Shown one piece after another: positions 1 to 12,541 of a DNA stretch of 13,000 bases (its first letter is position 1; every line of letters begins with the position of its first letter). The notes below the pieces were generated by a model that worked only from the letters and a program-made list of their open reading frames with translations, ran no database searches and was not told the origin of the DNA. This stretch comes from a virus (lineage: Duplodnaviria > Heunggongvirae > Uroviricota > Caudoviricetes), in IMG/VR virus record IMGVR_UViG_2571042690_000014; one strand, given 5' to 3'. Position numbers and translations under genes: made by a program.

Positions 1-220
1 GCTTCGTGCAGTCTGTCTCGGAAAGAAAAACTTTATGTTCTTTGGCAGCGATCACGGCGGCGAGCGTGGAGCACTGTTGTACGGGCTGATCGGCACCTGC
101 CGTCTGAACGGTATCGATCCGGAAGCGTATCTGCGCCATATCCTGAGCGTACTGCCGGAATGGCCTTCCAACCGAGTTGACGAACTCCTGCCATGGAACG
201 TAGTACTCACCAATAAATAA
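1..220 (+). CDS. IS66-family transposase, C-terminal fragment (5' end lies outside the window)
   Basis: The reading frame is open from the window edge to the TAA at 218-220 (LRAVCLGKKNFMFFGSDHGGERGALLYGLIGTCRLNGIDPEAYLRHILSVLPEWPSNRVDELLPWNV). This matches the conserved C-terminal pattern of IS66-family DDE transposases as I recall it (KN.LF.GS..GG...A..Y.LI.T..LN..DP..YL...L......R..ELLPW). Confidence 0.75.
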   Translation, partial: LRAVCLGKKNFMFFGSDHGGERGALLYGLIGTCRLNGIDPEAYLRHILSVLPEWPSNRVDELLPWNVVLTNK

Positions 221-250
221 GCGTCAATACGGTGCTCCGTTGACGCTTAC
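1..250 (+). mobile_element. IS66-family insertion sequence, right end with terminal inverted repeat
   Basis: The transposase stop is followed by about 30 bp containing the palindrome GTAAGCGTCAA...TTGACGCTTAC (220-250). IS66-family termini begin 5'-GTAAGCG (from memory). At 251 the sequence switches abruptly to codon 3 of phage gene L. Confidence 0.6.
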
Positions 251-943
251 GATATACAGCAGGAAACACTCAATGAGTGCACTAAAACGGAGCAATCCGC
301 GCTGATCGTGCTCTGGGAAATTGATCTGACAGAGGTCGGCGGAGATCGTTATTTCTTCTGTAATGAGCAGAACGAAAAAGGTGAACCGGTCACCTGGCAG
401 GGGCGGCAGTATCAGGCATACCCCATTCAGGGGACGGGATTTGAACTGAACGGTAAGGGCAGTGCTGCCCGTCCGACACTGACGGTCTCTAACCTGCACG
501 GCATGGTCACCGGGATGGCGGAAGACCTGCAGAGTCTGGTCGGCGGAACGGTGGTCAGGCGTAAGGTTTACGCCCGTTTTCTGGATGCGGTGAACTTCGT
601 CAACGGAAACAGTGACGCCGACCCGGAGCAGGAGGTGATCAGCCGCTGGCGCATCGAGCAGTGCAGCGAACTGAGTGCGGTCAGTGCTTCTTTTGTACTG
701 TCCACGCCGACGGAAACGGATGGTGCGGTTTTTCCGGGGCGCATCATGCTGGCCAACACCTGTACCTGGACCTATCGCGGTGATGAGTGCGGTTATAGCG
801 GTCCGGCTGTCGCGGATGAATATGACCAGCCGACGTCCGATATCACGAAAGATAAATGCAGCAAATGCCTGAGTGGCTGTAAGTTTCGCAATAACGTCGG
901 CAACTTTGGCGGCTACCTTTCCATCAACAAACTTTCGCAGTAA
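251..943 (+). CDS. L: Tail tip protein L (lambda gpL-like), 5' end removed by the IS66-family insertion; probably a pseudogene
   Basis: Translation from 251 (DIQQETLNECTKTEQSALIVLWEIDLTEVGGDRYFFCNEQNEKGEPVTWQGRQYQ...FGGYLSINKLSQ) is near-identical to lambda gpL from residue 3 onward. There is no native start codon: the first in-frame start is GTG at 308 with no convincing ribosome-binding site, and an in-frame TAA at 218-220 separates it from the transposase. Confidence 0.85.
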   Translation, partial: DIQQETLNECTKTEQSALIVLWEIDLTEVGGDRYFFCNEQNEKGEPVTWQGRQYQAYPIQGTGFELNGKGSAARPTLTVSNLHGMVTGMAEDLQSLVGGTVVRRKVYARFLDAVNFVNGNSDADPEQEVISRWRIEQCSELSAVSASFVLSTPTETDGAVFPGRIMLANTCTWTYRGDECGYSGPAVADEYDQPTSDITKDKCSKCLSGCKFRNNVGNFGGYLSINKLSQ

Positions 944-948
944 ATCCC

Positions 949-1692
949 ATGACAGAGACAGAATCAGCGATTCTGGCGCACGCCCGGCGATGTGCGCCAG
1001 CGGAGTCGTGCGGCTTCGTGGTGAGAACGCCGGAGGGGGAAAGATATTTCCCCTGCGTGAATATCTCCGGTGAGCCGGAAGATTATTTCCGGATGTCGCC
1101 GGAGGACTGGCTGCAGGCCAAAATGCAGGGTGAGATTGTGGCGCTGGTCCACAGTCACCCCGGTGGTCTGCCCTGGCTGAGTGAGGCTGACAGGCGGCTG
1201 CAGGTGCAGAGTGATTTGCCGTGGTGGCTGGTCTGCCGGGGGGCGATTCATAAGTTCCGCTGTGTGCCGCATCTTACCGGGCGGCGCTTTGAGCACGGGG
1301 TGACGGACTGTTACACGCTGTTCCGGGATGCTTATCATCTGGCGGGGATTGAGATGCCGGATTTTCATCGTGAGGATGACTGGTGGCGTCACGGTCAGAA
1401 TCTCTATCTGGATAATCTGGAGGCCACAGGGCTGTATCAGGTGCCGTTGTCATCAGCACAACCGGGCGATGTGCTGCTGTGCTGCTTTGGTTCATCGGTG
1501 CCGAATCATGCCGCCATTTACTGCGGCGACGGCGAGCTGCTGCACCATATTCCTGAACAACTGAGCAAACGAGAGAGGTATACCGACAAATGGCAGCGAC
1601 GCACACACTCCCTCTGGCGTCACCGGGCATGGCACGCATCTGCCTTTACGGGGATTTGCAACGATTTGGCCACCGCATCGACCTTCGTGTGA
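949..1692 (+). CDS. K: Tail tip assembly protein K (lambda gpK-like) with JAB/MPN (JAMM) and NlpC/P60 domains
   Basis: The 247-aa ORF has a JAMM motif HSHPGGLPWLSEAD (H-x-H-x7-S-x2-D) with an upstream Glu (APAESCG), and an NlpC/P60-like Cys/His pair (VTDCYTLF ... PNHAAIY). The classical lambda annotation starts at the internal Met (ATG at 1093, 199 aa); the longer form is needed to include the complete JAMM domain. Confidence 0.85.
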   Translation: MTETESAILAHARRCAPAESCGFVVRTPEGERYFPCVNISGEPEDYFRMSPEDWLQAKMQGEIVALVHSHPGGLPWLSEADRRLQVQSDLPWWLVCRGAIHKFRCVPHLTGRRFEHGVTDCYTLFRDAYHLAGIEMPDFHREDDWWRHGQNLYLDNLEATGLYQVPLSSAQPGDVLLCCFGSSVPNHAAIYCGDGELLHHIPEQLSKRERYTDKWQRRTHSLWRHRAWHASAFTGICNDLATASTFV

Positions 1693-2237
1693 AAACGGGA
1701 GCCGAAGCTATCCGGGCGCTGGCCACGCAGCTCCCGGCGTTTCGTCAGAAACTGAATGAGGGCTGGTATCAGGTGCGCATTGCCGGGCGTGATGCAGGCG
1801 AAAACGAATTATCTGCCCGTCTTAATGAGCCGCTGGCAAATGGTGCCGTGATCCACATCGTGCCGCGTCTGGCGGGAGCTAAAAGTGGCGGTGTGTTTCA
1901 GGTGGTGCTGGGGGCGGCGCTGATTGCGGTGGCATGGTGGAACCCTGTGGGCTGGCTGGGTGCCGCGGCTGTATCGGGCATGTATGCGGCAGGGGCCAGT
2001 ATGATCCTGGGTGGTGTGGCCCAGATGCTGGCACCGAAAGCCCGGACGCCCACAGCGACCAGCACGGATAACGGTAAGCAGAACACCTATTTCTCATCAC
2101 TGGATAACATGGTTGCCCAGGGCAATGTTCTGCCTGTTCTGTACGGTGAAATGCGCGTGGGGTCTCGTGTGGTTTCTCAGGAGATCAGCACGGCAGATGA
2201 AGGGGACGGTGGTCAGGTTGTGGTGATTGGCCGCTGA
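1590..2237 (+). CDS. I: Tail tip assembly protein I (lambda gpI-like)
   Basis: The translation MAATHTLPLASPGMARICLYGDLQRFGHRIDLRVKTGAEAIRALATQLPAFRQKL...YGEMRVGSRVVSQEISTADEGDGGQVVVIGR matches lambda gpI at both ends. It overlaps the 3' end of K by 103 nt in another frame, as in lambda. Confidence 0.9.
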   Translation: MAATHTLPLASPGMARICLYGDLQRFGHRIDLRVKTGAEAIRALATQLPAFRQKLNEGWYQVRIAGRDAGENELSARLNEPLANGAVIHIVPRLAGAKSGGVFQVVLGAALIAVAWWNPVGWLGAAAVSGMYAAGASMILGGVAQMLAPKARTPTATSTDNGKQNTYFSSLDNMVAQGNVLPVLYGEMRVGSRVVSQEISTADEGDGGQVVVIGR

Positions 2238-2255
2238 TGCAAAATATTTCATGTG

Positions 2256-2283
2256 AAACCGCCTCCGGGCGGTTTTGTCGTTT
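2256..2283 (+). terminator. GC-rich hairpin with trailing T-tract between I and J (possible attenuator or partial terminator)
   Basis: AAACCGCC-TCCG-GGCGGTTTTGTCGTTT forms a perfect 6-8 bp GC stem followed by a T-rich run, directly upstream of the J ribosome-binding site (GGAG) and start at 2298. Confidence 0.35.
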
Positions 2284-2297
2284 ATGGAGCATGACGA

Positions 2298-5200
2298 ATG
2301 GGCAAAGGAAGCAGTAAGGGGCATACCCCGCGCGAAGCGAAGGACAACCTGAAATCCACGCAATTACTGAGTGTGATCGATGCCATCAGCGAAGGGCCGA
2401 TTGAAGGTCCGGTGGATGGATTAAAAAGCGTGCTGCTGAACAGTACACCGGTGCTGGACAGTGAGGGGAATACCAACATCTCCGGTGTTACGGTGGTGTT
2501 CCGGGCAGGTGAGCAGGAGCAGACACCGCCGGAGGGATTTGAATCCTCCGGTTCCGAGACGGTGCTGGGTACGGAAGTGAAATACGACACGCCGATCACC
2601 CGCACCATCACGTCGGCAAACATCGACCGTCTGCGCTTTACCTTCGGTGTGCAGGCACTGGTGGAAACCACCTCAAAGGGGGACAGGAATCCATCGGAAG
2701 TCCGCCTGCTGGTTCAGATACAACGTAACGGTGGCTGGGTGACGGAAAAAGACATCACCATTAAGGGTAAAACCACCTCACAGTATCTGGCCTCAGTGGT
2801 GGTGGATAACCTGCCGCCGCGCCCGTTTAATATCCGGATGCGCAGGATGACGCCGGACAGCACCACAGACCAGCTGCAGAACAAAACGCTCTGGTCGTCA
2901 TACACCGAAATCATCGATGTGAAACAGTGCTACCCGAACACGGCACTGGTCGGCGTACAGGTGGACTCGGAGCAGTTCGGCAGCCAGCAGGTGAGTCGTA
3001 ATTATCATCTTCGCGGGCGCATTCTGCAGGTGCCGTCGAACTATAACCCGCAGACGCGGCAATACAGCGGTATCTGGGACGGAACGTTTAAGCCGGCATA
3101 CAGCAACAACATGGCCTGGTGTCTGTGGGATATGCTGACCCATCCGCGCTACGGCATGGGAAAACGTCTTGGTGCGGCAGATGTGGATAAATGGGCGCTG
3201 TATGTCATCGGCCAGTACTGCGACCAGTCGGTGCCGGACGGCTTTGGCGGCACGGAGCCGCGCATCACCTGTAATGCGTACCTGACCACACAGCGTAAGG
3301 CGTGGGATGTGCTCAGTGATTTCTGCTCGGCGATGCGCTGTATGCCGGTATGGAACGGGCAGACGCTGACGTTCGTGCAGGACCGGCCGTCGGATAATGT
3401 GTGGACCTATAACCGCAGTAATGTGGTGATGCCGGATGATGGCGCGCCGTTCCGCTACAGTTTCAGCGCCCTGAAGGACCGCCATAATGCCGTTGAGGTG
3501 AACTGGACTGACCCGGATAACGGCTGGGAAACGGCAACAGAGCTTGTGGAGGACACGCAGGCCATTGCCCGTTATGGTCGTAATGTCACGAAGATGGATG
3601 CCTTTGGCTGTACCAGCCGGGGGCAGGCACACCGCGCCGGGCTGTGGCTGATTAAAACGGAGCTGCTGGAAACGCAGACCGTGGACTTCAGCGTGGGCGC
3701 AGAAGGGCTTCGCCATGTACCGGGCGATGTTATTGAAATCTGCGATGATGACTATGCCGGTATCAGCACCGGTGGTCGTGTGCTGGCGGTGAGCAGCCAG
3801 ACCCGGACGCTGACGCTCGACCGTGAAATCACGCTGCCATCCTCCGGCACCACGCTGATAAGCCTGGTTGACGGAAGTGGCAATCCGGTCAGCGTGCAGG
3901 TCCAGTCCGTCACCGACGGCGTGAAGGTGAAAGTGAGCCGGGTTCCTGACGGCGTTGCAGAATACAGCGTGTGGGGGCTGAAGTTGCCGACGTTGCGCCA
4001 GCGCCTGTTCCGCTGTGTGAGTATCCGTGAGAACGACGACGGCACGTATGCCATCACCGCCGTGCAGCATGTACCGGAAAAAGAAGCCATCGTGGATAAC
4101 GGGGCGCACTTTGACGGCGACCAGAGCGGCACGGTGAATGGTGTCACGCCGCCAGCGGTGCAGCACCTGGCCGCAGAAGTCACTGCAGACAGCGGGGAAT
4201 ATCAGGTGCTGGCGCGATGGGACACACCGAAGGTGGTGAAGGGCGTGAGCTTCCTGCTCCGTCTGACCGTAACAGCGGACGACGGCAGTGAGCGGCTGGT
4301 CAGCACGGCCCGGACGACGGAAACCACATACCGCTTCAGGCAACTGGCGCTGGGGCGTTACACGCTGACGGTCCGGGCGGTAAATGCGTGGGGGCAGCAG
4401 GGCGATCCGGCATCGGTATCGTTCCGGATTGCGGCACCGGCAGCGCCTGTCACTATTGAACTGATACCAGGGTATTTTCAGATAACAGCGGTCCCGAAAC
4501 TGGCTGTATATGACCCGACGGTGCAGTTTGAGTTCTGGTTCTCGGAAAAGCGGATTATCGATATCAGGCAGGTTGAAACCAGCGCGCGTTATCTTGGTAC
4601 GGCGCTGTACTGGATAGCCGCCAGTAGCAATATTAAGCCGGGTTATGATTATTACTTTTATATCCGCAGCGTGAACACCGTTGGTAAATCGGCATTTGTG
4701 GAGGCCGTTGGTCGGGCGAGCGATGATGCGGAAGGTTATCTGAATTTTTATAAAGGGTTGATCAATAAAACGCATCTCGGCAAGGAACTGCTGGAAAACT
4801 TTGAGCTGACGGAAGATAACGCCAGCAAACTGGAGGAGTTTTCGAAAGAGTGGAAGGACGCCAACGATAAATGGAATGCCATGTGGGGCGTCAAAATTGA
4901 GCAGACCAAAGACGGCAAACATTATGTCGCGGGGCTTGGCCTCAGCATGGAGGATACGGAGGAAGGCAAACTGAGCCAGTTCCTGGTTGCCGCTAACCGT
5001 ATCGCGTTTATTGACCCGGCAAACGGGAATGAAACGCCGATGTTTGTGGCGCAGGGCAACCAGATATTCATGAACGACGTGTTCCTGAAGCGCCTGACGG
5101 CCCCCACCATTACCAGCGGCGGTAATCCTCCGGCATTTTCCCTGACACCGGACGGGCGGCTGACGGCGAAAAATGCCGATATCAGCGGTAACGTGAATGC

Positions 5201-6413: not shown

Positions 6414-6481
6414 GTGCACAGAAAACCCCCAGCTAGGCTGGGGGTTCCGGAAAGCTTTCAGCTTTAAGCCAGTTATTAAAA

Positions 6482-6550
6482 CCCCTTTTGATTTGTTAAA
6501 ACACCTTGCGGTCTGGCAACTGCAAGTGTCAAACAAGAAATCAAAAGGGG
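6482..6550 (+). promoter_or_regulatory. Stem-loop sequestering the tnpA ribosome-binding site (IS200-type translational control structure)
   Basis: The left arm CCCCTTTTGATTTGTT (6482-6497) is nearly complementary to AACAAGAAATCAAAAGGGG (6532-6550), which overlaps the ribosome-binding site for the ATG at 6557. Confidence 0.45.
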
Positions 6551-6556
6551 GTCCCA

Positions 6557-7015
6557 ATGGGGAACGAAAAGAGCTTAGCGCACACCCGATGGAACTGTAA
6601 ATATCACATAGTTTTTGCGCCAAAATACCGAAGACAGGTGTTCTACAGAGAGAAGCGTAGAGCAATAGGCAGTATTTTGAGAAAGCTGTGTGAGTGGAAA
6701 AGTGTACGGATTCTGGAAGCTGAATGCTGTGCAGATCATATCCATATGCTTGTGGAGATCCCGCCCAAAATGAGCGTATCCGGCTTTATGGGATATCTGA
6801 AAGGGAAAAGCAGTCTGATGCTTTACGAGCAGTTTGGTGATTTGAAATTCAAATACAGGAACAGGGAGTTCTGGTGCAGAGGGTACTACGTCGATACGGT
6901 GGGTAAGAACACGGCGAAGATACAGGATTACATAAAGCACCAGCTTGAAGAGGATAAAATGGGAGAGCAGTTATCGATTCCCTATCCGGGCAGCCCGTTT
7001 ACGGGCCGTAAGTAA
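6557..7015 (+). CDS. tnpA: IS200/IS605-family Y1 (HUH) transposase TnpA
   Basis: The 152-aa product from the Met at 6557 (MGNEKSLAHTRWNCKYHIVFAPKYRRQVF...) has the HUH motif HIHMLVEI and a downstream catalytic Tyr region (REFWCRGYYVDTVG). The ORF track's longer form (6506) begins upstream of the ribosome-binding site and is less likely. Confidence 0.85.
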   Translation: MGNEKSLAHTRWNCKYHIVFAPKYRRQVFYREKRRAIGSILRKLCEWKSVRILEAECCADHIHMLVEIPPKMSVSGFMGYLKGKSSLMLYEQFGDLKFKYRNREFWCRGYYVDTVGKNTAKIQDYIKHQLEEDKMGEQLSIPYPGSPFTGRK

Positions 7016-7135
7016 CGAAGTTGGATGCAAATGTCAGATCGTGTGCGCCTGTTAGGGCGCGGCTGGTAAGAGAGCCTTATAGGCGCATTTGAAAAACCTC
7101 CGGCTATGCCGGAGGATATTTATTGTGGAGTGGAT

Positions 7136-9514
7136 ATGGCAGCAGTAAAAATCTCAGGTGTGCTGAAAGATGGTGCGGGAAAACCAATACAGAACTGCAC
7201 TATTCAACTGAAGGCAAAGCGTAACAGCACCACGGTACTGGTGAACACGGTGGCTTCTGAAAATCCGGATGAAGCCGGACGTTACAGCATGGATGTTGAG
7301 CATGGTCAGTACAGCGTCACCCTGCTGGTTGAAGGTTTTCCGCCTTCACATGCCGGGACCATTACCGTCTATGAAGGTTCCAGACCAGGTACGCTGAATG
7401 ATTTTCTCGGTGCCATGACGGAGGATGATGTCCGACCGGAGGCACTGCGCCGCTTTGAGCAGATGGTGGAAGAAGCGGCACGCAACGCTGAAGCCGCCTC
7501 TCAGAGCGCAGCGGCGGCAAAGAAATCCGAAACTGCAGCGGCATCATCGAAGAACGCGGCGAAAACCTCAGAAACGAATGCAGCTAACAGCGCACAGGCG
7601 GCAGCGACCTCAAAGACTGCATCGGCAAACTCCGCGACAGCAGCCAAAAAATCAGAAACCAACGCGAAAAATAGCGAGACAGCCGCAAAGACGAGCGAAA
7701 CCAACGCAAAGTCCAGCCAGACGGCAGCGAAAACCAGCGAAACGAATGCCAAAGCCAGTGAAACTGCGGCAAAAAACAGCCAGGTTGCAGCAGCCCAAAG
7801 CGAGAGCGCGGCAGCCGGTTCTGCGACTTCAGCAGCTGGATCAGCAACTGCTGCGGCTAACAGCCGGAAAGCTGCGAAGACGAGTGAAACTAACGCAAAG
7901 TCCAGCCAGACGGCAGCGAAGACCAGCGAAACGAATGCCAAAGCCAGCGAAACTGCGGCGAAAAACAGTCAGGATGCAGCAGCCCAAAGCGAGAGTGCTG
8001 CAGCTGGTTCTGCAAGCGCGGCGGCTGCTTCTGCCACTGCATCAGCCAACAGTCAAAAAGCAGCAAAAACCAGTGAAACCAATGCAAAGACAAGCGAGAC
8101 TGCAGCGGCGAACTCGGCGAAAGCATCCGCTGCAAGCCAGACCGCTGCAAAAGCAAGTGAAGACGCAGCCAGAGAGTATGCAAGCCAGGCAGCAGATCCG
8201 TATAAATATGTCTTACAGCCGCTGCCTGATGTGTGGATACCGTTTAACGATTCACTGGATATGATTACGGGCTTTTCGCCATCATATAAAAAGATTGTTA
8301 TTGGTGACGACGAAATAACGATGCCTGGCGACAAGATTGTTAAGTTTAAACGTGCATCGAAAGCAACCTATATTAACAAATCTGGTGTGCTGACAGAGGC
8401 TGCCATTGATGAGCCACGATTTGAACGTGATGGCCTGCTTATTGAGGGGCAAAGAACTAATCTTCTGCTTAATTCAACAAATCCATCTAAATGGAATAAG
8501 TCAGGCAATCTGGAACTCACAGAAATATCCACGGATTCTTTTAATTTTACTTATGGGAGATTTACTGTAAAAGATACTCTTATTGGTCAGACAAGTGCTA
8601 TTAATATCGTAACGATTTCTGGCAGTAAAGGGTTTGATGTCACAGGTGATGAAAAATATGTGACCATTTCATGCCGTGTAAGAAGTGATGTTGAAAATAT
8701 AAGGTGTCGTTTAAGATTTGAACACCATGATGGTTATACTTACACTTTTTTGGGAGATGCTTACCTCAATTTATCAACACTTGTAATTGATAAAACTGGT
8801 ACTGCTGCAGACCGTATTATTGCAAAGGCTGTAAAAGATGAGGTTACTGGTTGGATTTTCTATCAGGCTACAATTAATGCACTAGATACAGAGAGCATGA
8901 TTGGTGCGATGGTTCAATACGCTCCTGTAAAAGGTTCAGGTACAGCATCTGGAGACTATCTGGATATCGCAACTCCACAAGTGGAAGGTGGATCAAGTGC
9001 TTCGTCATTTATTGTAACTGATATAACTGCAAGCACTCGCGCAAGCGATATGGTGACAGTCCCAATCAAGAATAACCTTTATAATCTTCCTTTTACGGTT
9101 CTTTGTGAGGTACATAAGAACTGGTATAAAACGCCAAATGCAGCACCGCGTGTTTTTGATACCGGCGGTCATCAAACCGGAGCGGCTATTATTCTTGGCT
9201 TCGGTCGTTCAACAGATTACGACGGATTTCCTTATTGTGATATAGGTTTGGCTAACAGACGGGTAAACGAAAACGCATCGCTTGAAAAAATGGTTATGGG
9301 GATGCGTGTAAAGTCAGATCAGTCTACGTGCTCAGTAAGTAACGGGCGTATATCCAGCGAAAAGAAAGCCACATGGTCCTATATTCAGAACTCCGCAATT
9401 ATCCGTATTGGAGGCCAGACTACAGCCGGGTTGCGTCATTTATTTGGTCATGTCAGGAATTTCAGAATATGGCACAAGGCATTGACTGATGCTCAGATGG
9501 GGGAGTCAATCTAA
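7136..9514 (+). CDS. stf: Side tail fibre protein Stf (lambda Stf-like N-terminus, divergent distal domain)
   Basis: From the ATG at 7136, MAAVKISGVLKDGAGKPIQNCTIQLKAKRNSTTVLVNTVASENPDEAGRYSMDVEHGQYSV... matches the lambda Stf N-terminus. It is followed by Ala/Ser/Thr-rich KTSETNAK-type repeats and an AT-richer C-terminal region that does not match lambda. The ribosome-binding site is GGAG at 7127-7130; the ORF track start at 7106 lies inside the IS200 right end and is unlikely. Confidence 0.85.
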   Translation: MAAVKISGVLKDGAGKPIQNCTIQLKAKRNSTTVLVNTVASENPDEAGRYSMDVEHGQYSVTLLVEGFPPSHAGTITVYEGSRPGTLNDFLGAMTEDDVRPEALRRFEQMVEEAARNAEAASQSAAAAKKSETAAASSKNAAKTSETNAANSAQAAATSKTASANSATAAKKSETNAKNSETAAKTSETNAKSSQTAAKTSETNAKASETAAKNSQVAAAQSESAAAGSATSAAGSATAAANSRKAAKTSETNAKSSQTAAKTSETNAKASETAAKNSQDAAAQSESAAAGSASAAAASATASANSQKAAKTSETNAKTSETAAANSAKASAASQTAAKASEDAAREYASQAADPYKYVLQPLPDVWIPFNDSLDMITGFSPSYKKIVIGDDEITMPGDKIVKFKRASKATYINKSGVLTEAAIDEPRFERDGLLIEGQRTNLLLNSTNPSKWNKSGNLELTEISTDSFNFTYGRFTVKDTLIGQTSAINIVTISGSKGFDVTGDEKYVTISCRVRSDVENIRCRLRFEHHDGYTYTFLGDAYLNLSTLVIDKTGTAADRIIAKAVKDEVTGWIFYQATINALDTESMIGAMVQYAPVKGSGTASGDYLDIATPQVEGGSSASSFIVTDITASTRASDMVTVPIKNNLYNLPFTVLCEVHKNWYKTPNAAPRVFDTGGHQTGAAIILGFGRSTDYDGFPYCDIGLANRRVNENASLEKMVMGMRVKSDQSTCSVSNGRISSEKKATWSYIQNSAIIRIGGQTTAGLRHLFGHVRNFRIWHKALTDAQMGESI
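7688..8065 (+). repeat. Tandem duplication of a 189-bp (63-codon) unit inside stf
   Basis: AAGACGAGCGAAACCAACGCAAAGTCCAGCCAGACGGCAGCGAAAACCAGCGAAACGAATGCCAAAGCCAGTGAAACTGCGGC... from 7688 recurs from 7877 with only a few substitutions. It encodes two copies of TSETNAKSSQTAAKTSETNAKASETAAKNSQ.AAAQSESAAAGSA. Confidence 0.75.
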
Positions 9515-9795
9515 TGAAAGATTTAACACTCAAATTTGCAGACAGGGCCGACTTTTCGGCCTTTATGGATAGCATTGGCTATTATGATGACGAGTCGATG
9601 CAGGATGATATTCTTATTGACGTGATAGGTAACGTGTACAAAGAAACCGGAGAACTGACTGAAGATGGCGAACCGGTATGTGTTAAGGAAGATGGATATT
9701 ATGTAAACGTGCGCATCATTAATGATGCAAAAAAATCGTCAATATTCGATGAATACGCGGTTGTAGTTGAACATCAACTTCGTGGCTGGATGTGA
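9514..9795 (+). CDS. Hypothetical small acidic protein (93 aa), translationally coupled to stf
   Basis: The start overlaps the stf stop (TAATG) and is preceded by a GGGGGAG ribosome-binding site. The product is rich in Asp/Glu (MKDLTLKFADRADFSAFMDSIGYYDDESMQDDILIDV...) with no recognisable motif, and the sequence is AT-rich like the distal part of stf. Confidence 0.5.
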   Translation: MKDLTLKFADRADFSAFMDSIGYYDDESMQDDILIDVIGNVYKETGELTEDGEPVCVKEDGYYVNVRIINDAKKSSIFDEYAVVVEHQLRGWM

Positions 9796-9804
9796 GGGAG
9801 ACAA

Positions 9805-10509
9805 ATGGCTACATCGACAGTAATTCCAGGAGACATCACCACGTTAAAGGGAGATGTCAGTAAAGCCAAGGAAGATATTTCCTCAATTAACGGAAAAGTA
9901 TCAACGCTTCAGGCTGATATGACCAGTGCAAAGCAGGATATCAGCACCAGATACACAAAAACTGAAGTTGATAATAAGCTGAAAAACAAACTGGAAGTGA
10001 ACGCTCTGGAAAGCGGTCGTTATGGTGGAGATTTTTACCCGTTGACTGGCCGTGAAGCGTTTTATTTGTGGGGATTGGGCACGACTACAGCGGCGGCAAA
10101 CCTTTATCTTAATCCTGACCCCGCAATTTCGTCTGTGCTGCGGTCAACATCGTCTATCCGCTATAAACATTCAGTAGAGACAATAGATTCAGAGCACGCC
10201 GATCTCATTTTCAGGATGCGCCCTGTGTGGTACAGGTCACAATGCGAAAATGACAGGCGTGACTGGGGATTCTACGGATTGATTGCCGAGGAAGTAGGAG
10301 AAATTGCCCCTCAGTTTGTACACTGGCGACCAGCTAACGAAGATGATGCACCGGAAGCTATTTCCAGCAATGGCCTTGTTGCCGAAGGTGTAATGTACGA
10401 ACGTCTGGTTGTTCCACTGATTCACCATATCCAGAAGCTGACTGAAAGAGTTGATGAACTTGAGTCAGAATTAAAGTTGTTATCCGTTTCCCGAAGCGAT
10501 ATCGGATAA
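9805..10509 (+). CDS. Fibre-like coiled-coil protein with C-terminal intramolecular-chaperone (peptidase S74-like) domain
   Basis: It has a GAGGGAG ribosome-binding site. The N-terminus carries repeated coiled-coil-like units (GDVSKAKEDISSINGKVSTLQADMTSAKQDISTRYTKTEVDNKLKNKLE). The C-terminus fits the S74 / chaperone-of-endosialidase pattern: SIRYK (S-x-R-x-K), then LIFRMRPVWYRS, WGFYGLIAEEVGEIAPQFV and VMYERLVVPLIHHIQKLTERVDELESEL. The assignment is from memory of the family signature, not a search. Confidence 0.55.
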   Translation: MATSTVIPGDITTLKGDVSKAKEDISSINGKVSTLQADMTSAKQDISTRYTKTEVDNKLKNKLEVNALESGRYGGDFYPLTGREAFYLWGLGTTTAAANLYLNPDPAISSVLRSTSSIRYKHSVETIDSEHADLIFRMRPVWYRSQCENDRRDWGFYGLIAEEVGEIAPQFVHWRPANEDDAPEAISSNGLVAEGVMYERLVVPLIHHIQKLTERVDELESELKLLSVSRSDIG

Positions 10510-10519
10510 AGGAGGAGTA

Positions 10520-10807
10520 ATGGATATAAGCCCCTTACTTCATGCACTTTGTGCTGTGGCTGCGCAAACACTGGTTGGTCTTTTTACCGGAAACTGGGCT
10601 TACGGAGCGATAGCCGGTTGTACGTTCTTCATTGCGCGTGAACACACCCAGGCAGAATATCGCTGGATCGAAATGTTCGGGCATGGCAAGCGAATGAATA
10701 TGCCGTGGTGGGGCGGTTTTGATCCGCGCGCGTGGGATGTGACAAGCCTGATGGATTTTGCTGTGCCGGTGGTGGCGTGTCTGCTGATCTGGATGTTGAT
10801 CCGTTAA
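10520..10807 (+). CDS. Hypothetical small membrane protein (95 aa)
   Basis: It has a strong GGAGGAG ribosome-binding site 3 nt after the preceding stop. There are hydrophobic segments at both ends (LLHALCAVAAQTLVGLFTG, AIAGCTFFIA, FAVPVVACLLIWMLI). GC content is higher than in the two genes before it. Confidence 0.5.
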   Translation: MDISPLLHALCAVAAQTLVGLFTGNWAYGAIAGCTFFIAREHTQAEYRWIEMFGHGKRMNMPWWGGFDPRAWDVTSLMDFAVPVVACLLIWMLIR

Positions 10808-11159
10808 ATATAAAAGCCGCAGTAACTTGCCATGATAGGATACTGCGGCTGGCTGGTTAACTTTCGATAGTGCGAGTATTGAATGATTTCCAGCCGTTAC
10901 TGATTTTATATAACGGCAGTGGAATTATTCAACACACAGGCAAAACACAGGCAAAACGGAATAAGCTGAGAAAAAAAGCGTGCTTTCCCAATCTGGGGCA
11001 AATCACGTCTGAATGACACCTGAAAACAGGTGGTGGACTCAAGAAGGCTTGGAATATTCTTCTTTAATGTTATGTAATTCATTGATTTTTCGTGTACGAT
11101 TTTAAGACATTTATTCCAAGAAGAATTTTTAACTCTTTGATTTTTCTACTCTGTATCAT

Positions 11160-11221
11160 CGGTCTCGAAAACCGGAGTAGGGGCAACTCTACCGGGGGTT
11201 CAAATCCCCCTCTCTCCGCCA
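11160..11221 (+). other. Prophage att core: 62-nt 3' fragment of a tRNA-Ser (anticodon CGA, serU-type) gene, from anticodon stem to CCA
   Basis: CGGTCTCGAAAACCGGAGTAGGGGCAACTCTACCGGGGGTTCAAATCCCCCTCTCTCCGCCA has an anticodon stem-loop (anticodon CGA), a long variable arm, a T-arm GGGGGTTCAAATCCCCC and a 3' acceptor strand plus CCA. There is no 5' acceptor strand or D-arm upstream, so it is a partial copy, as expected for an att duplicate where a phage integrates into a tRNA gene. Confidence 0.7.
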
Positions 11222-11770
11222 CTTTATCAATGACTTATCTCCCGACTTCCCGCCTTGCTTTTCCTAAACAGAACAATCGTAGGATATTCTTGAAGGGTTA
11301 GATCGTCACTGTTTTCTGTTCGATACTGTGACATTCAGCACTTGATTCGCTATGGGTCTGACAGGAAGGTTTCGAGCGAAAATCTACAGTTATTCAGTCG
11401 TTTTCTTATCGGTCACCATTATTCTTTTAGACATTGATCCTATGAAACTGCCGCAAAGTTGCTGGCGGGAACTGAAGTTGCGTAGAGAAGGGGTCAATAA
11501 TTGAGCCAAAAAAGGAACGCGGCCGTCAGATTAAAGCCGCGGGACAAAGTCCATAATTTCCAAGAGTTGTTGAATTTCCCAGCTTTTTTGAAAGCCTTTG
11601 TATCATACTAACAAGTAAAAAAGGTTTAAACACCAAAATTAACCTATATTTCTGGTTAGCTTTACCATGACAGATGACTTGCTCCTGGAGACATTTGCGC
11701 TGCCAGTCTGTATGGCTGAGTTGTGTATTTATTGTTCGCCTTTTTCTCAGTTTTTTTCTACAGACATAAT

Positions 11771-11890: not shown

Positions 11891-12541
11891 TCAATGAGAC
11901 ATCATCTCCTCGACCACTTCTTCGCTACTCAACTGATAGGGATAATACGTTGGCCAGTTTTCCATTTCATTCAATAAAGATTGCTGGGAATCATTACCCA
12001 TAAAAATGTGAAAATGAGATGATTTTCGTGGTGCAATTATATGATCGCTAAATTGTATATATTTAGGGGCTTTGCTTTCAGGATCTTTACATTCGAATAA
12101 GTAACGAACGCCTTTCTTGCCTGATTTATAGGTGAGTATTTTGTATCCATCGTAATCATATTTACAGGATGTTGTTTCATTATTTCTATGGAATTCGACA
12201 ATGCCGTCCTCAATGCCAATCATTTCGATATCTGTCGCATAACCTTTGCGATAATAATCTTTAATTTCAGCAAATGTTTTGGTTTTATCTGCATCCGCTT
12301 TCTTCTGAAAGACGGGGTCAAGTTTGCCACTTTGCAGTAAAGGGTAAACGGATTGCCAGACTCCATCCCAGTCACTGAGCGTTCGGTTTTGTACATTGGT
12401 ATCATCAAAAACACCATTAGCAGCTTTTTGTTCGACCTCTGTTAAGGGTTTGCCGTGTGAGTGATGACCATGCGAAAAGGCAGGAGCGCTAACAATAAAG
12501 ACACCTAAAGCAACAGCCAGTTTATGAAGACGAATCGCCAA
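11891..12541 (-). CDS. zinT: ZinT (YodA), periplasmic zinc/cadmium-binding protein (host gene)
   Basis: The 216-aa product [47 protein letters not shown]...[17 protein letters not shown] has a His-rich N-terminus after the signal peptide and matches E. coli ZinT from memory. The start appears to be TTG, with a GGAGG ribosome-binding site 8 nt upstream. Confidence 0.9.

Follow-up and report, generated by a model that had tools for sequence, protein, structure and literature searches.

We analysed a 13,000-nucleotide (nt) stretch of viral DNA (IMG/VR record IMGVR_UViG_2571042690_000014; hereafter the window) in which the lambda-type side tail fibre gene stf is followed on the plus strand by three small genes: orf93 (9514-9795, 93 amino acids (aa)), orf234 (9805-10509, 234 aa) and orf95 (10520-10807, 95 aa). 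The stf stop codon overlaps the orf93 start codon in the sequence TAATG, the gaps that follow are 9 nt (orf93 to orf234) and 10 nt (orf234 to orf95), and the genes are preceded by the ribosome-binding sites (RBSs) GGGGGAG, GAGGGAG and AAGGAGG, respectively, bearing out the tight coupling and strong RBSs described in an earlier reading made without database searches (the sequence-only reading). That reading took the three genes for one cassette standing in the place of the tail fibre assembly gene tfa. We find that the arrangement is real but ordinary: it is the usual copy of a widespread mobile module whose logic is known, followed by an unrelated membrane-protein gene (Table 1).

The three genes differ in composition and family content. 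GC content is 40.8% in the distal part of stf, 40.4% in orf93 and 45.8% in orf234, against 52.8% in orf95 and 56.5% in the upstream gene J, so that, as had been noticed from the sequence, orf93 and orf234 share the AT-rich character of distal stf while orf95 is host-like. Ratios of non-synonymous to synonymous substitution rates (dN/dS) lay between 0.17 and 0.41 for orf93, orf234 (0.26) and orf95 in comparisons with IdasGreatGrand, mEp460, swan01 and Gally, a sign of purifying selection indicating that all three are real genes. Searches of Pfam, NCBIfam and PHROGs gave no match to a Tfa-like family for any of them, in agreement with the claim that none resembles Tfa; the S74 domain of Orf234 was the only Pfam or NCBIfam family found in the three proteins, and PADLOC returned no defence or superinfection-exclusion model for them.

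Table 1. Features of the stf locus and the adjoining prophage end (positions in the window).
Feature	Positions	Strand	Basis
stf, side tail fibre, 792 aa, proposed first, virion-anchored fibre	7136..9514	+	PF08400 E 2.6e-67; phrog_1419 over full length; RefSeq start 7136
Stf conserved 'neck', aa 363-437, where the foreign distal module begins	8222..8446	+	conservation 0.83-0.97 across 12 alleles; GC from ~56% to ~40%; FGS017 DNA identity from 8216
Stf variable lectin-like head, aa 438-792, last ~25 aa conserved	8447..9511	+	NF048003; PDB 6TB9; allele variability
orf93, small acidic protein, proposed to help assemble the lectin-like head or to remain on it as a subunit	9514..9795	+	phrog_1361 E 1e-46
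orf234 aa 1-15, conserved N-terminal putative docking peptide MATSTVIPGDITTLK	9805..9849	+	invariant residues in second-fibre proteins
orf234 aa 16-115, predicted heptad-rich coiled-coil stalk and ~50-aa tip	9850..10149	+	weak coiled-coil/leucine-zipper matches at aa 11-65; P22 gp26 similarity
orf234 aa 116-234, Peptidase_S74 intramolecular chaperone domain, predicted self-cleavage at Ser116	10150..10509	+	PF13884; S116/K121
orf95, predicted small inner-membrane protein, lambdoid backbone or moron gene, outside the fibre module	10520..10807	+	phrog_1443 E 9.5e-57
3' part of tRNA-Ser (serU), prophage attR end	11160..11221	+	K-12 serU match 99%; no whole tRNA (ARAGORN); sequence ends ...GGTTCAAATCCCCCTCTCTCCGCCA

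Stf joins a lambda-type N-terminus, the prophage tail fibre N-terminal domain, to a distal part of another kind. Its head matches the NCBIfam gene transfer agent (GTA) head-spike-fibre domain NF048003 (58.5 bits against a cut-off of 36) and the head spike fibre Rcc01080 (PDB 6TB9; phmmer E 2.7e-4), the mEp460 homologue of the head matches Laminin_G_3, and Pfam identified no S74 domain in Stf. Across 78 related loci the head occurs as at least 12 alleles below 90% identity, the most variable blocks being aa 453-617 and 678-752, with the neck (aa 363-437) and the last ~25 aa kept. Conserved ends around variable blocks are the pattern expected of a glycan-binding receptor domain under diversifying exchange, and the GTA head spike fibre has been reported to bind capsular polysaccharide (PMC7296036, PMC10218006). 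Taken with this hypervariability, the literature on RcGTA and on T5-like lateral fibres suggests that the distal ~355 aa of Stf probably bind a surface glycan. The Ala/Ser/Thr/Lys-rich shaft of Stf (7636-8107) is itself built of nested tandem repeats, with 21- and 42-base-pair (bp) units and a 189-bp unit present in 2.3 copies at 83% identity, and has a very strong AT skew, up to 0.64.

The order seen here, a phrog_1419 fibre, a phrog_1361 protein of ~92 aa whose start overlaps the fibre stop, and an S74-ended protein ~10 nt downstream, recurs across phage groups: in the lambdoid phages IdasGreatGrand and Tritos, in the Queuovirinae members Nonagvirus ESCO3 and Seuratvirus VogelGryff, in the T5-like phages FGS017, IrisVonRoten, mar004NP2 and AKFV33, and in the Drexlerviridae phage swan01. 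The N-terminal anchor of the first fibre varies with the phage group and the distal ~425 aa are common to them. One example is FGS017, a T5-like Salmonella phage that matches positions 8216-9489 at 93% protein and 92% DNA identity, with 72% identity between Stf and the FGS017 fibre. This DNA identity and the recurrent gene order support the proposal that distal stf, orf93 and orf234 arrived as one foreign host-range module. Homologues of orf93 were found by tblastn in 186 phage records, including Vequintavirinae; an exhaustive HMMER scan placed the family in only 50 clusters at 50% identity, which marks it as a small enterobacterial-phage family.

Linkage within the module is uneven. In 80 IMG/VR loci, each orf93 homologue is followed, wherever sequence remains, by an open reading frame (ORF) starting MATSTVIP, of which two alleles (234 and 346 aa) occur in free combination with at least 12 alleles of the Stf head (39-100% identity); across E. 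coli prophage loci with heads spanning this same range, orf93 stays at least 90% identical. The second fibre is absent from phage 21 and mEp460, which have stf-orf93-orf95, from Vequintavirinae, which have the distal Stf part and orf93, and more widely from beside the LamG fibre and orf93 of many natural lambda-like phages, E. coli prophages and distant homologues (31-52% identity). Lytic carriers have no orf95, and orf95 also stands behind other genes. The three genes are therefore not one obligate cassette: of the co-occurrence that had been proposed, the tie between orf93 and lectin-like heads stands, with one exception described below, and orf95 and the second fibre proved separable. Several records labelled as Campylobacter or Listeria phages (among them C13, A116 and LM 4-14-1) carry T5-like or rV5-like coliphage fibre loci at more than 90% identity, and these look like mislabelled or contaminating coliphage sequences.

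The product of orf93 is, as first described, a small acidic protein (isoelectric point 4.17), and the position of its gene is nearly fixed: in every context examined but one it lies directly behind a LamG-headed fibre, usually with a stop/start overlap, and the rule holds down to homologues of 31% identity in unrelated contigs. The exception is a short contig (P0178) in which the homologue follows an unannotated 153-aa protein. A natural experiment is offered by the Vequintavirus locus of the large lateral fibre, which occurs in two forms. In one (for example DrSchubert, 1-3677 in locus coordinates) the fibre ends in Peptidase_S74, no small ORF is present and the next conserved gene comes directly after; in the other (for example EmilHeitz, 1-4333) the fibre carries a LamG-like head and is followed by an orf93-family gene and then by the same conserved gene, a form present in ~35 of 123 matching records. 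The occurrence of both forms at one locus suggests that the small gene accompanies the lectin head and is replaced by an in-built S74 chaperone where that head is missing. Given its position, its independence from the second fibre, the Vequintavirus alternation and its conservation, Orf93 most likely serves the lectin head as a dedicated helper in folding or assembly, and it may be retained on the fibre.

Two further lines of evidence bear on what kind of partner this would be. Because Orf93 is conserved while the head it accompanies varies, it is not a variable adhesin, and the traits of a T4 gp38-type tip adhesin were not found in it: it has no hypervariable segments, although the heads differ by up to 60%, and it has no match to that family. 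An AlphaFold2 model built on an alignment of divergent homologues reached a mean predicted local distance difference test score (pLDDT) of 85 and was the one used, as a model from a shallow alignment of near-identical sequences (pLDDT 49) was unusable; compared with known fibre chaperones, including solved Tfa structures, the predicted fold gave no match.

The contrast between a conserved Orf93 and a variable head would equally suit a protein that is not a chaperone and acts instead as a structural adaptor on the Stf tip, forming a socket for the N-terminal peptide of the second fibre. Such a role would explain why, in all cases inspected, the complete docking peptide was confined to genomes with orf93, and why LtfB of the DT57C type, which has no orf93 beside it, lacks the peptide. 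It sits less well with the persistence of orf93 homologues where there is no second fibre to dock (phage 21, mEp460, Vequintavirus and distant prophages) or with a comparison of loci with and without fibre 2, in which no Orf93 residues specific to the former emerged, only conservative I/L/V differences; and the virion proteomes of AKFV33 and mar004NP2, which were shallow, did not list the small protein. We consider a purely adaptor function rather unlikely, though it is the chief competitor of a folding role, and note that the adaptor and folding roles are compatible and could be true together.

The third protein of the module, Orf234, is most likely a short second fibre whose mature part is predicted to be aa 1-115. 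Its N-terminal peptide, MATSTVIPGDITTLK, is almost invariant in second fibres of 224, 234, 346, 351 and 581 aa, all of them S74-ended, and M1, T3, T5, V6, I7, P8, D10, I11, L14 and K15 are invariant among second-fibre proteins of 224-581 aa with otherwise unrelated bodies. Fibres that dock on a conserved partner typically combine a constant N-terminus with a body that varies. Residues 11-65 give weak coiled-coil and leucine-zipper matches and resemble the needle repeats of P22 gp26, and the distal regions of the tail fibre families phrog_454 and phrog_1699 align to Orf234 from aa 33-51 on. The S74-like character already suspected of the protein is supported by a PF13884 match at aa 116-172 (27.3 bits against a cut-off of 22), and its C-terminal part is similar to the C-terminus of DT57C LtfA (PDB 8HQZ, E 5.5e-7). 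S116 and K121, in the sequence TSS116IRYK121, are invariant in an alignment of Orf234 with five homologues, which fits self-cleavage. The long second fibres have at residues 27-65 a 'collar' motif (NLSDLADRAAAWLNVRP...DAATKRWV; 6581-6775 of locus L004) that is also found within long fibres occurring singly, those of DT571/2 (LtfA), LL5, Dhillonvirus and Wifcevirus; it is missing from the short orf234 allele.

The sequence-only reading had instead seen in Orf234 a standalone chaperone-domain protein, and it could in principle be a free chaperone that folds Stf in trans through its S74 domain and is not part of the virion. Annotators have named such proteins in this sense ('putative lateral tail fiber chaperone' in BASEL, elsewhere 'chaperone of endosialidase'), there are only ~115 aa ahead of the S74 domain, and Stf has no S74 domain of its own. 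S74 domains, however, are described as acting on their own polypeptide. Moreover, the Stf proteins of phage 21 and mEp460 have the same head type with no such gene beside them, and since heads of this type assemble in phage 21-type phages without orf234 we rate a chaperone acting in trans as improbable. The coiled coil and tip of the short allele are also conserved under purifying selection, and the same 15-aa peptide heads proteins of 346-581 aa, among which IrisVonRoten Gp24 has receptor-binding domains (PMC11990801), leading us to prefer a short fibre.

A third account, that orf234 is a 3' remnant of what was once a longer fibre gene, pushed aside when the stf-distal/orf93 segment recombined in, draws on phrog_3299, a family made up of long proteins, whose final ~240 positions (1147-1384 of 1385) align with orf234. 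This candidate is largely refuted, and we regard it as very improbable: in all loci orf234 starts at an ATG of its own, with a strong RBS, at a constant distance of 9-10 nt from orf93, it evolves under the constraint given above, and it keeps the N-terminal peptide across alleles. The same short form is, furthermore, retained at 57-61% identity in ~40 lytic Drexlerviridae genomes, indicating a functional gene rather than a remnant.

From its composition and distribution, orf95 is separate from the fibre module and belongs to a family of predicted two-helix membrane proteins found in many temperate phages where the receptor-binding-protein genes end. The membrane assignment made at first sight agrees with hydrophobic segments at ~aa 3-25 and 74-95 and with the annotation of two transmembrane domains in the phage 21 homologue. 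The gene is present in nearly all lambdoid loci, behind either second-fibre allele or directly behind orf93, and was not found in lytic carriers of the module (for example at the ESCO3, FGS017 and swan01 loci); together with its host-like GC, this absence upholds the separate origin that had been proposed for it. Homologues lie directly behind receptor-binding-protein genes in other temperate phages: behind the tailspike gene of the P22-like podovirus Gally (3501-3788 in locus coordinates) and the Tfa gene of the Halomonas myovirus phiHAP-1 (3501-3806), as well as in phage 21 (3501-3794). The orf95 homologue is followed in phage 21 and E. coli KE50 by cargo genes for the iron/manganese transporter sitABCD. 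A literature search for 'Ybl63', a UniRef name for orf95, returned nothing relevant.

This placement is what could lend colour to the suggestion that the cassette, or at least orf95, serves the prophage in masking receptors or excluding superinfecting phages. The predicted small membrane protein, with its two helices, is encoded at a prophage end beside receptor-binding genes, a position that recalls the exclusion genes cor and HK97 gp15, and the family follows such genes in unrelated temperate phages and is missing from lytic ones. Yet orf93 and orf234 are clearly related to virion fibres, and orf95 itself has no PADLOC, Pfam or NCBIfam match. Neither a promoter-like site ahead of orf95 nor a terminator before it was found, so that it looks co-transcribed with the late genes, and in phiHAP-1 the homologue overlaps the Tfa gene inside the tail operon. 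Exclusion is thus a mere guess for orf95, and we consider it unlikely for the locus.

Combining these observations, we think it fairly probable that positions 8222-10509 constitute a horizontally mobile host-range module of the lateral tail fibre, set on a lambda-type Stf N-terminus and comprising a lectin-headed Stf, its partner Orf93 and the second fibre Orf234, with Orf95 outside it. From homologies, gene linkage, allele patterns and domain content we infer how such a module might work. Stf would be the first fibre, anchored in the virion and carrying a hypervariable, lectin-like head of the GTA head-spike-fibre, LamG or galectin type that binds glycan. Orf93, translationally coupled to stf, would act as a chaperone helping this head to fold or assemble in trans, as a substitute for Tfa or for an S74 domain built into the fibre, and may stay bound as a small subunit. 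The conserved 15-aa peptide would then dock Orf234, with its coiled coil and small tip, onto the Stf/Orf93 assembly, and the S74 domain of Orf234 is predicted to trimerise the protein and afterwards to cut itself off at Ser116, leaving a mature chain of ~12 kDa.

Several points weigh against this arrangement. The contacts among Stf, Orf93 and Orf234 are deduced from gene patterns only. Orf93 is conserved even though the head it would serve is hypervariable, which fits a protein that binds the neck or the C-terminus, or a structural adaptor, equally well; and the restriction of the docking peptide to genomes with orf93 means that Orf93 could itself be the docking platform. A mature Orf234 of ~115 aa would be very short for a receptor-binding fibre, and the BASEL annotators' name for the short S74 protein points to a chaperone.

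Which O-antigen or capsule types a phage is able to cross depends on its side and lateral fibres. As the module moves between temperate and lytic coliphages and brings with it at least 12 alleles of the head and several of the second fibre, it forms a practical unit for predicting and engineering host range; and if Orf93 does fold lectin-headed fibres, any exchange of such heads into other phages would need to bring its gene along. More tentatively, and with rather less confidence than we place in the module itself, phrog_1361 may represent an unrecognised class of assembly factors or tip subunits for LamG/galectin-type heads, with a fold unrelated to Tfa, gp38 and gp57A, interchangeable with an in-built S74 domain and spread over five or more enterobacterial-phage groups; separately, orf95 could define a new family of membrane proteins beside the receptor-binding genes of temperate phages.

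The locus lies at the right end of a prophage. The chromosome of E. coli strain 4/0 is 100% identical to positions 9000-11300, and its RefSeq annotation, which agrees with our calls for orf93, orf234 and orf95, reads J, lom, an IS200C transposase, a 'prophage tail fiber N-terminal domain-containing protein', a hypothetical protein, a 'tail fiber domain-containing protein', a further hypothetical protein and, on the other strand, zinT; at least 80% of the same interval is present in 153 of 5,426 complete E. coli genomes. Positions 11160-11300 match the K-12 serU tRNA locus at 99%, and ARAGORN found no complete tRNA there; since just the 3' ~62 nt of this tRNA-Ser stand at the end (11160-11221), this is the right attachment end (attR) of a lambdoid prophage integrated in serU. 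The minus-strand zinT gene (11891-12541) follows ~670 bp past the serU piece, the gap holding only a 109-aa minus-strand ORF; in K-12, yodB presumably lies between serU and zinT. IS1397 is close by in the reference strain.

At the other end of the locus, an IS200C insertion sequence (~6418-7124; tnpA, RefSeq coding sequence 6557-7015) sits between the lom terminator and the stf RBS, a junction that is intact and uninterrupted in IdasGreatGrand. The end of IS200C lies 12 bp upstream of the ATG at 7136, which is the true start of stf, being the RefSeq start and having a native RBS and ATG in common with IdasGreatGrand; the ATG at 7106 is spurious and is supplied by the insertion. The IS200C end contains a hairpin with an 8-bp stem (7097-7115), and the insertion could block late transcription of stf through orf95 in this prophage.

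The sequence-only reading could not assign the arrangement to a described system. The lateral-fibre loci of IrisVonRoten and AKFV33 are in fact homologues of this locus, and LtfA/LtfB of DT57C are analogues, so that of the novelty proposed the lack of a Tfa or gp38 match in Orf93 and Orf234 holds and the newness of the gene order does not. Among the closest is IrisVonRoten (Bas32), whose Gp22, Gp23 and Gp24 have the same three-gene order and spacing as stf-orf93-orf234. Stf aa 131-792 are 54% identical to Gp22 and Orf93 is 39% identical to Gp23, and Orf234 and Gp24 share the N-terminal peptide and the S74 region. The first fibre has a lambda-type N-terminus here and a T5 Ltf anchor in IrisVonRoten, and the second is a 234-aa protein with a coiled coil and small tip here, as against the 574-aa, T-shaped Gp24 with its two receptor-binding domains. 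In predicted structures of this T-shaped complex, Gp24 is attached to the proximal fibre Gp22, from which a C-terminal 'galectin-like domain' protrudes that might serve as an additional receptor-binding domain (Humolli et al. 2025, PMC11990801); Gp23 is not discussed there.

The T5-like phages AKFV33 (ORF137 (ltpA), ORF136 and ORF135 (ltpB)) and mar004NP2 carry the same module and differ in their lytic backbone, long second fibre and lack of orf95. The AKFV33 fibres were described as consisting of two proteins, ORF137 and ORF135, with ORF137 likened to side tail fibres of E. coli prophages and seen in virions by mass spectrometry, in a set of only four identified proteins (Niu et al. 2012, PMC3326045). 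The first fibre of mar004NP2 was likewise likened to such prophage fibres and seen in virions by mass spectrometry, with the small protein and the second fibre not listed (PMC6563131); both datasets are too shallow to judge whether the small protein is in the particle, and its gene was left uncharacterised in both reports (PMC3326045, PMC6563131). The attachment of a second fibre to a first has been shown genetically for LtfA and LtfB of DT57C (Golomidova et al. 2016, PMC4728585). These branched fibres of DT57C and DT571/2 (PMC4728585; Ayala et al. 2023, PMC10713586) resemble the present pair in having a tail-anchored first protein and a second attached through it with its own S74 domain, and differ in that LtfA ends in S74 where Stf ends in a lectin head. 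No orf93-family match was seen in DT57C-type phages, and the N-terminal ~26 aa of the T5-like second fibre, including the docking peptide, had no match there, the only matching part being the 'collar' that follows.

Among lambdoid phages, phage 21 and mEp460 have Stf with the same head type, an orf93 homologue of 52% identity and an orf95 homologue of 94-98% identity in the same order, and differ in having no second fibre gene. The locus also parallels lambda stf-tfa and the P2- and Mu-type assembly systems, in which a small gene stands directly behind the fibre gene that it presumably serves, and shares the PF08400 anchor; Orf93 and the Tfa-type proteins (lambda Tfa, P2 G, Mu U) have no sequence or fold similarity, and the fibre tips they accompany differ in type too. 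Finally, the domain that Stf shares with the RcGTA head spike fibre Rcc01080 is here placed on a tail fibre, within a common distal part of ~425 aa that adds a LamG-like portion and an orf93 partner. The two-fibre module as a whole is thus already represented in the literature, and the uncharacterised orf93 family is the one real gap that this locus brings into view.

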